Source: Mobula hypostoma (Eukaryota). Taken from it: DNA of 64,000 nt. Position 1 is the stretch's first letter. Each line of letters starts with the position of its first letter. The stretch is from contig NC_086097.1 of assembly GCF_963921235.1 (NCBI RefSeq), positions 158,474,001 to 158,538,000 on the forward strand, written 5' to 3'. The position numbers and the translations under genes are program-made. Below the pieces are notes generated by a model. The model searched no databases, was not told the origin of the DNA, and worked only from the letters and a program-made list of their open reading frames with translations. Of this stretch, positions 42,501-51,671 are shown piece by piece.

Positions 42501-44695
42501 TCCATTGTTCTTGCTTGTATTGAGTACAGAAGTTAAAATTGTGTACTTTTCTGTCTCCTGGCTTTCTGACTTTGTACAAGCCATTAATTATTTAGGAACA
42601 CTGTAAGCATTTTTCTAAGACACTAGGCATTAGTACACAGTAGCTTTCACTTTTTCTTTCCCATTTTCCCCCCATGCTTTGGTGCAGGCACTGATTTACA
42701 TGATACGGAATTCTGAGAGCATTGGTTATTTCTTGTGCTACAACTGAACACTTTAAAGTTCTTGCTTGAGGCTGGTGGTAAATATAGCCAGGAGCTACTC
42801 CACAGCTGAACCTAATTCAGTCTGTTCTTGCTATTAACATGTGTGATTTCCAACGAGAAACAGTGGATTGAGATAAGCATGACACCCGGATGGTATAATG
42901 GTTGTGTCTGGAGGGTGTTCAAATATATCCATTCCCACCTGGAGAATATATGCTTAAGTAATTAAGGAAATATGACAAAAACTAATATGATTTATATTTA
43001 TCCATGAAACCATCAGATTGTCAGAAAAGAACTACCACTGATGTCATTATGAAAGAAAATCTGCCATTGTTTCCCTACCTTGTTTGTCTTTGTTCATGTT
43101 TTTAAGATTTGGGCATCTCTGCAAGGTTTACTGTCCATTGCTAATCAGCTTTGGAAGGTGGTACTGAGCTGCCACCTTGAGCTGTCGTTGTCCTTCACGT
43201 ACCGGTGTTGCATCTGTGCTCCGAGGAAAGGAATTCCAGGATTTACACCTGGCAGTAATGATGGGCCAGCAATGTATTTTCAAATCAGAATGGTGTGTGA
43301 CTTGAAGAGGGGGGGGGGCTGCTGATTCTGTTCTTTAATTCCTCCTAATACCCCTGTTATTGATTTGGGAGGAGTATTCAGAGTCACTTGGATGAGTGAT
43401 AGTCATACACAGTTAGGCAACTCTGACCCAAATGATGCAACTGCAGATGACACAGATTACAGCCAGGGTGCACTTGTGGTATAGGGAATGAACATTCTGG
43501 ATAGTGAATGCCACTTAAATTGCTTGTGTTGTTCAGAATGTGTTGAGTAATGTTGGAGCTGCATTCATCCAGGATAATATTGAATATTGTATCATAATCC
43601 TGACCTCTACCTGGATGGTGATGGGAAGGAATTAGGTATTAGGAGATGCACATTGCAGAATACCTGGCTGCTAAGGTATCTTGTAGCACAGTGTTTATAT
43701 TTGCTGGCCACTTGAGGTTTTTGTTAGTCAAGACTCCATAGTGTTGATGATAATGGACTCAGATGGTAATGCCTTAGATGTTAAGGGTAGGTGAATGGAA
43801 CTATTGTTGGAGAAAATCATTCCCTGCCTCTTGGATGGCATGAATGTTACTTTAGCCCTTGGCTGAATTTTTGACAAATCCTGCTATAAACTGGACATGG
43901 GTTGGTTGATTTGCTTGAAAATCTGTGAAATGATTGATCATTGTGCATTCAACAATAAATGTCCAATTTCTTGATAACATAAGAACATAAGTAACAGGAG
44001 CAGGAGTAGGCCATCTGGCTCATCAAGGCTGTGAGATTCTCGGGTGGAGACGATTTAAGTGTGAATGTAGCCTCTTTTATCATAAGTCCTTAATGCCAAC
44101 CTCAGCCAAATTTTGTTTCCATGTCAGGGCCATTAATTCTCACCTCAGCTCTGGAATTAAAATCAGAATCAGGTTTAATATCACTGGCCTATGTCATGAA
44201 ACTTGTTAACTTTGTGAGCAGGACAATGCAATACATAAAAATAGAAAAAAGCTTTATATTACAGTATGGTGGTGGCATCCGTTAGTCTCGCGAGACCATG
44301 GATCTGCGCCTGGAAAGTCTTCACTCTCCAGGGCACAGGTGTGGGAAAAGGTTGTATGGAAGACCGGCAGTTGCCCCTGCAGCAAGTCTTTCCTCTCCAC
44401 GACACCGATGTTGTCCAAGGGAAGGGCAAGGGCCGATACAGCTTAGCGCCAGTGTCGTTGCAGGAGTTGCCAGAACGAGCTTGAAGGCAACATTGTACTG
44501 CCTTAGGGACTCCAGCTCCAGACTTGTCCTCAGGGTTTAATCTTGAAGCCTTTCCCATGAGTGGGTATGGCCACAAGGCAGCGGAGGTTTGAAATCAGAG
44601 CTTTCCCTCTCTTAGATGGACTGCCTTCCCAGGCTGACGAGCTCCATCTACCCGAAGCACTGGTTTTAAGGCGCCAGGACCCGCCTTCGCCCCTT

Positions 44696-45135
44696 CTCCT
44701 GTCAGTAGAAACAGTTTTTTTTATTTCAAGATATACTTTATTCAAAAATAAATATATACAATAAACCATTCAATAACTTTTCATCCTTTACATACGTTTC
44801 CATTATACTCAGTACATTTCTGTATGTATAGCCACCCATGTGGCACTCCAGTAGTTCAGCTTACCATATCAATGTTGAGGGGTATACTCCCCGCCCACCG
44901 ACCCCTCCCACTCCCACGGGTGGAGAAACCTATACTGTGGTCCTTCCCCACCGGGCCCTTGCGGTGGCTGCACCGAGTTTCAGTGCGTAGAAACAGTTCC
45001 ACCGGGCTTAGAGGCTAAGCCACACGAGAAGGCTATAGCTGGACTTGGTTGTCAGAGGCGCATGCCGTGAGGAGCACTTTTAGGTAGTGGGAGCTTGTCC
45101 CCACTACCACTCCTCGGCTAGACAACCTTGGAACC
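44696..45135 (-). ncRNA. Candidate HDV-like ribozyme at the RTE 5' end (non-canonical, interrupted)
   Basis: P1 GGUUCCA/UGGAACU with a G1-U wobble, P3/L3 GCC-UUCUCGUGU-GGC, J4/2 CUGA, and a long J1/2 hairpin. P2 is weak and there is an extra segment between P3 and P1. Confidence 0.4.
44717..44986 (-). mobile_element. 5'-truncated L1/Tx1-type insertion
   Basis: Perfect 12-bp TSD GTAGAAACAGTT (44705-44716, 44987-44998). Minus strand encodes ALKLGAATARARWGRTTV*, then a 3' UTR, AATAAA (44737-44742) and oligo(A). Confidence 0.8.
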
Positions 45136-46425: not shown

Positions 46426-46742
46426 CACGTGTGGGCATGTGGCCAAGTGGTTAAGGCATTCGACTAGTGATTTGAAGGTCGTGAGTTTGAGCCCCAGCCA
46501 GGCAGCGTGTTGTGTCCTTGAGCAAGGCACTTAATCACACAGTACTCTGCGGCGACACTGGTGCCAAGCTGTATGGGTCCTAATGCCCTTCCCTTGGACA
46601 ACATTGATGTTGTGGAGAGGGGAGACTTGCAGCATGGGCAACTGCTGGTCTTCGATACAACCTTGCCCAGGCCTGCACCCTGGAGAGTGAAGACTTTCCA
46701 GGCGGAGATCCATGGTCTCGCAAGACTAACGGATGCCTTTAA
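46426..46742 (+). mobile_element. tRNA-derived SINE with CORE-like body and RTE-derived tail
   Basis: A-box TGGCCAAGTGG, B-box GTTTGAGCC, then GTGTCCTTGAGCAAGGCACTTAA. 46548-46737 is the reverse complement of ~44275-44463. Perfect 12-bp TSD AGCTATCACAAC (46414-46425, 46743-46754). Confidence 0.9.
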
Positions 46743-49348: not shown

Positions 49349-49650
49349 CAGTGGTCCCCAACCTCCAGGCAGTGAGCCGATACCGATCTGCGAAGCATGC
49401 AGGGGTACAGCGGTAGCCGGGATGCACCTAATACATCTTTAAGAAAAAAGACGAAATAAACAAGCTAACTAATTAGGTGGCAATCGCCTCTGATCTGGGC
49501 CAACCTTTACGTGCTGGGCGGCACCAAATTAATTAGCTTGTTTATTTTGTTTTTTTTCTTAAAGATGTGCTGGGTGTGTCCCGGCTACTGCTGCATTCTC
49601 CGCGGCAATGTATCGGTCTGCGGCCTGGGTGTTGGGGTGATGGGACACTG
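49349..49650. mobile_element. Palindromic hAT-type MITE nested in the Tigger element
   Basis: Starts CAGTGGTCCCCAACC and ends GTTGGGGTGATGGGACACTG. Long internal inverted arms (ACATCTTTAAGAAAAAAG...AAATAAACAAGCTAA and TTAGCTTGTTTATTT...TTCTTAAAGATGT). TSD only partial. Confidence 0.65.
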
Positions 49651-51338
49651 GGGTGTCGTCTGTTTCCATCAGGGCAGGCAGGTCATCTTCTTTTATGTCT
49701 GCCTGCCTCGATGTCGAAGGTCGAGGTTCGTCGTCTGCTGTGGCTGATGTGGAAGGCTTGCTTGACTGCTGAGTCTCGCGCATTTTTTTTATCATACAGT
49801 TCTTTGTAATCACTCAAACCATCCTGCAAATATGCCCTAAACCGATGTACCCTTTCAAAATTAAAGTCGTACTTTTCTGCAATCATTGCAGTGAAAATCT
49901 CACGCAGTTGCTTCACATTCAGTTCCTGGACGACTTCACTTTTGGTCCGCTCGCTACTGCATTTGGTTTCAATTGTTATCCTTCCCTCTTTCAATTGCAT
50001 CAGCTCTTCATCTATCAGTTCTTGGTCATGGGATGCCGAAACCTCTTCAACATCATCTTTAAAGTTGCTGGTGAATGCAGCAGGCCAGGCAGCATCTAGG
50101 AAGAGGTACAGTCGACGTTTCGGGCCGAGACCCTTTGTCAGGACTAACTGAAGGAACAGCTAGTAAGAGATTTGAAAGTGGTTGGCGGGGGGAGGGGGGG
50201 AGATCAAAAACGATAGGATAAGACAGGAGGGGGAGGGATGGAGCCCAGAGCTGGACAGGTGATTGGCAAAAGGGATATGAGAGGATCATGGGACAGGAGG
50301 CCCAGGGAGAAGGAAAAGGGGGAGTGGGGGGAAAAAAACCCAGAGGATGGGCAAGGGGTATAGTCAGAGGGACAGAGGGAGAAAAAGGAGAGAGAGAGAA
50401 AGAATATGTGTATATAAATAAATAACGGATGGGGTACGGGGGGAGGCGGGGCATTAGCGGAAGTTAGAGAAGTCAATGTTCATGCCATCAGGTTGGAGGC
50501 TACCCAGACGGAATATAAGATGTTGTTTCTCCAACGTGAGTGTAGCTTCATCTTTACAGTAGAGGAAACCGTGGATAGACATATCAGAATGGGAATGGGA
50601 TGTGCAATTAAAATGTGTGGCCACTGGGAGATCCTGCTTTCTCTGGCGGACAGAGCATAGCTGTTGAGCAAAACGATCTCCCAGTCTGCGTCAGGTCTCG
50701 CCAATATATAGAAGGCCACATTGAGTGCACCGGATGCAGTATATCACCCCAGCTGACTCACAGGTGAAGTGTCGCCTCACCTGGAAGGACTGTCTGGGGC
50801 CCTGAATTCAGCAAAATGATCTCCCAGTCTGTGTCGGGTCTCGCCAATATATAGAAGGCCACATCAGGAGCACCGGACGCAGTATATCACCCCAGCCGAC
50901 CCAATATATAGAAGGCCACATTGGGAAGCCTCCTTTTTTAAAGAAAGGGGCTTCCCTTCCTCCACCATCAACTCTGCTCACAAATGCATCTCCCCCATTT
51001 CACGCACACCTGCTCTCACTCCATCCTCCCGTTGCCCCACTAGGAATAGCTTTCCCCTGGTCCTCACCTACCACCCCACCAGCCGCAGGGTCCAACATAT
51101 TATTCTCCGTAACTTCCACCACCTCCAACGGGATCCCACCACTAAGCACATCTTTCCCTCCCCCCCCCCCCGCTTTCCGCAGGGATCGCTCCCTACACGA
51201 CTCCCTTGTCCATTCGTCCCCCCATCCCTCCCTACTGATCTCTCTCCTGGCACTTATCCTTGTAAGCGGAACAAGTGCTACACATGCCCTTACACTTCCT
51301 CCCTTACCACCATTCAGGGCCCCAGACAGTCCTTCCAG

Positions 51339-51671
51339 GTGAGGCGACACTTCACCTGTGAGTTGGCTGGGGTGATATACTGCGTCCGGTGCTCCCGATA
51401 TGGCCTTCTATATATTGGCGAGACCCGACGCAGACTGGGAGACCGCTTTGCTGAACACCTACGCCCTGTCTGCCAGAGAAAGCAGGATCTCCCAGTGGCC
51501 ACACATTTTAATTCCACATCCCATTCCCATTCCCATTCTGATATGTCTATCCACGGTCTCCTCTACTGTAAAGATGAAGCCACAGTCAGGTTGGAGGAAC
51601 AACACCTTATATTCCGTCTGGGTAGCCTCCAACCTGATGGCATGAACATTGACTGCTCTAACTTCCGCTAA
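51339..51671 (+). pseudogene. Penelope GIY-YIG endonuclease domain (C-terminus of a truncated ORF)
   Basis: GVIYCVRCSRYGLLYIGETRRRLGDRFAEH...VATHF...LEEQHLIFRLGSLQPDGMN. Confidence 0.95.

Follow-up and report, generated by a model that had tools for sequence, protein, structure and literature searches.

A candidate HDV-like ribozyme with a predicted extra hairpin in L3 at the first base of an RTE-type element of Mobula hypostoma

Does the short element on the minus strand of this stretch of Mobula hypostoma DNA (the window, 64,000 nt in all) begin with a self-cleaving ribozyme of the HDV type, and how would such a ribozyme be built? A reading made from the sequence alone had proposed an HDV-type fold starting at the first base of an RTE derivative, with a 7-bp P1 and an unusual insert between P3 and P1. 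Our analysis of the family to which the element belongs upholds the layout, the starting point and the RTE anatomy of that proposal, and revises the length of P1 and the placement of the insert. Judged from sequence comparison and folding models, the first ~170 nt of the element are laid out as in an HDV-like ribozyme and probably cut just 5' of their first base, G1, with an extra hairpin predicted on the 3' side of L3; we put the probability of this reading at roughly 0.72.

The element runs from G45135 to 44269 (minus strand) between the two halves of an 11-nt target-site duplication (TSD) with one mismatch, CATACTGCAAT (45146-45136) on the 5' side and CATACTGTAAT (44268-44258) on the 3' side, the former adjoining G45135, the 5' end proposed earlier. 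The strings on which the sequence-only reading was built were all located on the minus strand: GGTTCCA at 45135-45129, TGGAACT at 45001-44995, GCC-TTCTCGTGT-GGC at 45033-45019, CTGA at 44705-44702 and CAGGAG at 44701-44696. The predicted ribozyme opens with the P1 5' strand GGUUCC (45130-45135), in which G45135 is both the predicted cleavage-site G1 and the first base of the element. It is followed by a structured J1/2 domain resembling P1.2 (45047-45127), a set of nested stems from which 10 nt of family sequence are missing here and whose outer stem pairs GGUUGUC (45127-45121) with GACAACC (45053-45047) in the fold. These nested stems lie where they had been placed earlier and were recovered by the folding of the window copy (z -2.7; 1 of 200 shuffles equally good). 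Then come the remnant CUAUA of the P2 5' strand (45034-45038), the P3 5' strand GCC (45031-45033), and the L3 core UUCUCG with UGU (45022-45030), whose C45028 is predicted to pair with G44994 in P1.1. The extra 7-bp hairpin, GGCUUAG-CCU-CUAAGCC (45005-45021), has its predicted place on the 3' side of L3, and is followed by the P3 3' strand (45001-45003; GGC in the family, GGU here through CpG decay) and by the P1 3' strand GGAACU (44995-45000), which forms a G1.U wobble. As had been suggested, there is no P4: the G of P1.1 and a 6-nt linker stand in its place (44988-44994). The last parts are J4/2, CUGA (44702-44705), with C44705 as the predicted catalytic cytosine (the equivalent of C75), and the P2 3' strand CAGGAG (44696-44701).

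The window copy itself is broken. Relative to the family its P2 5' strand has lost one base and changed at two, three changes that destroy P2, and a 282-nt LINE insertion (its duplication included) occupies the P4 slot. The copy is probably dead or inactive through the loss of P2. The P4 slot that holds the insertion is in itself often tolerant.

Whether complete copies generally begin at this G can be seen in the family of the window element (F1). Its head had 2543 candidates in the 3.5-Gb genome, 40 of which were scored, and a 15-mer covering P3 and L3 had 384 exact matches in the genome compared to 0 for a control. Three samples of 30 loci, seeded by the head, by the 15-mer and by 146 nt downstream, left 83 distinct copies after removal of 6 duplicate loci and of L039, a chance match to the 15-mer; mean divergence from the F1 majority is 4.5% (46 copies). 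Of 53 copies sampled by internal sequence, 39 start within three bases of G1 (18 exactly at G1, 35 not) and 14 are truncated, and many copies lack the first 1-3 nt. The flanks upstream of the copies are unrelated to one another. TSDs were found in 21 of the 42 testable internally sampled copies, where a shifted control gave 2 of 42, and 18 of those 21 end at -3 to +4 of G1; in the sample that was itself seeded at G1, the TSD ends exactly at G1 in 13 of 21. Full-length copies therefore begin at or beside G1, as the proposed start at base 1 implies.

The sequence-only reading had also predicted that a strand missing from the window copy, one able to pair with CAGGAG directly before GCC, would be found in the family. 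It is there: F1 has CUCCUG at this place, the perfect partner of CAGGAG. In the two samples seeded away from the 5' end, 46-50 of 49-50 F1 copies have a standard pair at each of the six P2 positions. The CUAUAG that had been offered as the P2 strand of the window copy was a misassignment in part, as it includes G45033, already the first base of P3. Directly before P2', J4/2 has its C in 81 of 83 copies and a conserved A in 82 of 82. The predicted P1.1 consists of one C-G pair (48 of 51 F1 copies) plus U.U, and as it is invariant, its position is what supports it. The whole strand order, P1-P2-P3-L3-P3'-P1'-P1.1-(P4)-J4/2-P2', is present in intact family copies and absent from the window copy, in which P2 is broken.

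The 7-bp P1 did not hold up in the family. Its seventh pair uses T45001, which is a CpG-decay base, and F1 has A opposite C at this position. Ahead of GGAACU, 56 of 83 copies have C and the other 27 have T, and the G that follows this base reads as A in 14, a pattern that points to CpG decay. The seventh position is unpaired in the majority of every family; in F2, a related family, it is T in raw copies and does not pair with C. Since the family has A opposite C here, the predicted P1 is 6 bp, not 7. A 6-bp P1 frees the GGC directly before P1' to serve as P3', as it does in the canonical ribozyme.

This bears directly on the segment of ~17 nt that had been read as an insert between P3 and P1, and which we read instead as the 7-bp hairpin GGCUUAG/CUAAGCC (45021-45005) within L3. 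Three lines of evidence, namely a related family without the hairpin (F3), the family base at the seventh P1 position and the folding energies, make it most likely that the extra segment is a 7-bp hairpin on the 3' side of L3 and that the P3-P1 junction is canonical. F3 is canonical in 14 of 14 copies, with a 7-nt L3, GGC directly before P1' and no hairpin, and it differs from the other families by one gap of exactly 20 nt. The L3 core UUCNCG is kept throughout, and L3 measures 7 nt in F3 and 27 nt, hairpin included, in F1, F2, F4 and L092 (the last two being a further family and a metagenome copy). We take the insertion point to match the extruded bases (positions 26-27) of the HDV structure. 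In the intact copies L003 and L004 the pairs of the hairpin have a probability >0.99, and the fold with the hairpin in L3 is 3.7-5.6 kcal/mol more stable than the fold proposed earlier (-16.5 compared to -10.9 kcal/mol with P2, and -12.5 compared to -8.8 with P1). In the pseudoknot-free ensemble P3 has near zero weight in either reading (its pairs reach <=0.003 with the hairpin in L3), and P1 has 0.05-0.16.

The earlier fold would likewise be an active HDV-like ribozyme, with P3 closed by the first GGC and ~18 nt between P3 and P1. It would give L3 a near-normal length of 9 nt, and conservation of the first GGC equals that of the second throughout the four lineages that have the hairpin. However, it calls for two separate insertions where a single one would explain the difference from F3, it breaks the hairpin at the energetic cost just given, and it leaves unexplained the second GGC, which stands directly before P1' in all five lineages and is the sole option for P3' in F3. 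We consider the earlier fold quite improbable and retain the hairpin within L3.

The related heads that were found, F2, F3, F4 and L092, allow a comparison across five lineages, four of which have the hairpin (F1, F2, F4 and L092) and one of which, F3, does not. F2, which came to light in contigs of sequencing runs, has 2013 exact matches of an 18-mer, of which 30 copies were read, and its hairpin has changed only in the loop relative to F1. F4 is an autonomous family, ~75% alike in the 5' UTR. Within the hairpin, pair 129-139 is U-A in F1 (49 of 51) and F2 (24 of 25) and A-U in F4 (16 of 19); this two-sided change is limited to the one pair and would be possible in either fold. The hairpin of L092 has one G.U pair, and the J1/2 outer stem of F4 has an A.A mismatch in 17 of 19 copies. 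For P1, P2 and P3, where a check for covariation had been proposed, the comparison gave a divided result, with compatible changes in P1 and almost no variation in P2 and P3. Pair 1 of P1 is G.U in F1, F3 and F4 and G-C in F2 (13 of 26), and pair 3 is U-A in F1 (33 of 43), U.G in F4 (16 of 18) and G-C in L092, the single copy on which the two-sided change in P1 rests. No covariation was found in P2, P3 or P1.1 across the five lineages, where the sole change is one C-G to U.G in L092, because these helices are nearly invariant.

In a tree of 330 nt of downstream sequence (29 rows), each family forms one group, that is, a separate clade, and F3 together with a distant family, F5, is split from all hairpin lineages at 97/98. 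As the root of the tree is unsure, one gain and one loss of the hairpin are both possible. A bolder proposal is that these sequences represent a subclass of ribozyme in which a selected L3 hairpin acts as a folding switch, with a single origin, later than the split from the canonical sister family, and with compensatory change maintaining it in the LINEs of more than one host. The first strand of the hairpin repeats the P3' triplet and could hold the P3 strand during transcription, releasing it only when the hairpin closes and so timing the cleavage of the retrotransposon RNA. On the present comparison we regard this proposal as doubtful.

Matches in metagenome contigs were two: L092, which is complete and comes from another organism, and L091, in which the 5' start and J4/2 are missing and which was excluded from the table of pairs. 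Both belong to a related RTE with the same core of P3, L3 and hairpin, at ~0.3 changes per site in the 5' UTR. The two matches found in viral contigs stand alone, with no other part of the element. A core pattern lacking the hairpin was rejected as a measure of family size, as it gave 17 matches compared to 25 in the control; 4 of the 17 led to F3, and the rest were single deletions in F1 or F2 copies or chance. Three such single copies resembling F1 or F2 (L125, L128 and L135) show a deletion between the two GGC triplets that removes some of the hairpin segment; L3 is then 9 nt long and P3 adjoins P1 directly.

A structured 5' UTR might yield a ribozyme layout by chance, and several observations could be cited for this. 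The stems are short, and a search of Rfam with the window copy and five other loci (E up to 10 or 5) matched no ribozyme family, although the Rfam models hold specific sequences, so that a missing match lowers confidence little. Standard HDV descriptors keep L3 short. The descriptor of the HDV layout used here leaves room for a long L3; it was written after the sequence had been seen, and the loci searched were chosen to hold the family. Read with this in mind, it matched 24 times, in 22 distinct copies, over the 1.37 Mb of loci compared to 3 times in 221.8 Mb of shuffles, and control descriptors that require a different base as the catalytic one gave 0, 2 and 0 matches. The 64-kb window gave 0 matches, because its copy is broken. 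With 250 nt of upstream sequence allowed, the descriptor placed G1 on the first base of the element in 21 of the 22 copies, 11 of these 21 coming from the search seeded at G1; the exception is a truncated copy. Given these counts, and given that F3 is canonical, a chance reading seems highly improbable.

If the ribozyme reading is right, the element would be transcribed inside a host read-through RNA, and its head would fold into a double pseudoknot with a 6-bp P1 (G1.U), a 6-bp P2, a 3-bp P3, a P1.1 of one C-G plus U.U, and no P4. The J1/2 stem would draw P1 and P2 together, as it does for Agam-2-1, and C44705 with Mg2+ would catalyze a cut just 5' of G1 and free the element, whose RNA the LINE protein would then copy from the 3' tail. 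Copying of a cleaved RNA would result in complete copies that begin at G1. A sharp 5' end would also follow from an internal promoter, which counts against taking the end as a signature of cleavage. The structure could be a catalytically slow or dead relic, retained because the LINE protein uses it, because it aids translation initiation or because it forms part of an internal promoter, with the 5' end set by the transcription start or by the reverse transcriptase stopping at the structure. HDV-like ribozymes have been proposed as IRES and protein-binding sites (passages of PMC6765202), and a relic would fit both the many copies that lack their first bases and the minimum-energy pseudoknot-free fold, in which a competing hairpin covers P1' and the catalytic C. 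Such a relic does not readily account for a start that coincides with G1 and not with any other base, or for the conservation of the CUGA cytosine, of the U and G of L3 and of the pairing of G1 with a pyrimidine across five lineages that are ~75% alike in their 5' UTRs. We think it unlikely, and favor a ribozyme that would be active in the intact copies.

A ribozyme at the first base of an RTE element is a known arrangement. Passages of PMC5786205 predict that several RTE elements carry a 5' ribozyme and describe ORF-less derivatives that keep both ends, and 5' ribozymes on RTE elements are described in passages of PMC6765202. The HDV-like ribozymes of the RTE clade (Ruminski et al. 2011, as cited in parts of PMC5786205, PMC3774820 and PMC6765202) have the same position at base 1 of a LINE with AP endonuclease and RT, and the same conserved downstream and unrelated upstream sequence; an L3 hairpin goes unmentioned in those citing passages, whereas one is present here. 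According to the portions of PMC3774820 available, the R2 ribozymes of silkmoths and other arthropods share the 6- or 7-bp P1, the absent P4, the long J1/2 and the conserved C and A of J4/2. Unlike the RTE element, R2 is specific to rDNA and its ribozyme often borrows 28S sequence for P1, and the only deviation of L3 noted in those portions is altered spacing in Nasonia. The drz-Agam-2-1 ribozyme of Anopheles has a similarly large structured J1/2 (P1.2) between P1 and P2, whose stem speeds cleavage and draws P1 and P2 together, but its P2 is 12 bp, compared to a P2 of 6 bp, no P4 and a hairpin in L3 here (passages of PMC4908430). The minimal forms among the minimal HDV-like and theta ribozymes also lack P4 (sections of PMC10879173), and the Ackermannviridae ribozyme has the same P1.1 of one Watson-Crick pair plus U:U, which can be fast (sections of PMC13635239); those sections place these ribozymes in a phage context with a short J1/2 and mention no L3 hairpin. 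As the absent P4, the 6-bp P1 and the long J1/2 are all published, only the L3 hairpin is unusual. We did not find it in the literature searched on HDV-like ribozymes, although Ruminski 2011, Webb 2009, Webb and Luptak 2011 and Weinberg 2015 or their supplements may show such variants, and neither RTE nor shark is mentioned in the main text of a 2026 bioRxiv ribozyme screen.

Should intact copies prove able to cleave, the HDV core would tolerate a 20-nt helical insertion in L3, descriptor searches restricted to a short L3 would miss the group that bears the hairpin, and the L3 site may suit the grafting of domains onto the widely used HDV ribozyme. Nearly the same core occurs in this genome both with and without the hairpin, a natural pair in which the hairpin's effect can be tested directly.

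The element behind this head is a derivative of an RTE-type LINE, joining the first ~540 nt of a 4.05-kb single-ORF element to its last ~55 nt. In the window, the rest of the LINE 5' UTR (44324-44695, minus) is ~90% identical to that of the full-length copies L239 and L240, and the last ~55 nt with a short ACC-repeat tail (44269-44323, minus) are 94-96% identical to the 3' ends of L240 and L241. L240 is a 4.05-kb copy with a frame of 1048 aa, L012 continues into the endonuclease frame, and L165 has AP endonuclease (PF14529/PF03372) and RT (PF00078) in one frame with the endonuclease N-terminal. The 3' UTR is short with an ACC-repeat tail, and the TSDs are 8-16 nt. We take the RT motifs of the parent LINE to be RTE-like. 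Among the matches listed, the best named homolog of its protein is a sawfish protein (85%) and RTE proteins at 56-74% identity are widespread; no named RTE protein was among the 120 homologs listed. By comparison with part of the PMC5786205 supplement, a block of the 5' UTR is identical by eye at 21 of 22 nt to RTE-3_BF, and the block is also common to RTE-1_NV, RTE-4_NV and Ingi-3_AC. The assignment to RTE is thus anatomical, not phylogenetic.

Bipartite ORF-less elements that join a 5' UTR to a 3' end and keep the true 5' end are known as RTESINE1/2, WALLSI3 and MAR4_MD (passages of PMC5786205); the element described here differs from them in that its junction varies among copies. There are 47 junction pairs in 72 copies, some of this spread being alignment noise. 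At the point where the two halves meet in the window, CCTGGAGAG (44332-44324) can form a 9-bp helix with CTTTCCAGG (44317-44309, both minus); these strands are ~3.5 kb apart in the full LINE, and the junctions of the copies cluster at the helix. That the junctions vary and yet cluster there suggests repeated template jumps across a pairing of the 5' and 3' parts. On the plus strand at ~46430-46740 lies a SINE with a tRNA-like head, which shares its tail and the later portion of the 5' UTR with the short element but has no ribozyme, and which fits the SINEs with RTE bodies predicted in PMC5786205 (passages available). A fifth RTE-type family (L210, L214 and L219) has a related later 5' UTR from about base 840 and a different head, in which no clear HDV layout was seen by eye; the 5' end of L219 consists of short tandem repeats.

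The later insertion in the window copy is the 3' end of a LINE with poly-A (44717-44986, minus), flanked by a 12-nt duplication (44998-44987 and 44716-44705) and separating P1' from CUGA-CAGGAG. The earlier view of it as a later LINE insert is supported. Other copies of this LINE are 96-97% identical (40 of 1753 candidates scored), and its protein has RVT_1 and zf-RVT domains. A Tx1 label is plausible from the RT, the zf-RVT domain and the poly-A, which would fit the L1/Tx1 type. Elements of the Tx1 clade are often target-specific; no target preference for the ribozyme was seen in 11 other copies, whose 3' flanks are unrelated.

Elsewhere in the window, 50820-51668 (plus) has a weak match to GIY-YIG (E 7e-4, under the curated cut-off) and is possibly the remnant of a Penelope-like element, and at 49408-49593 there is a MITE-like inverted repeat of 72 nt with a 42-nt spacer.
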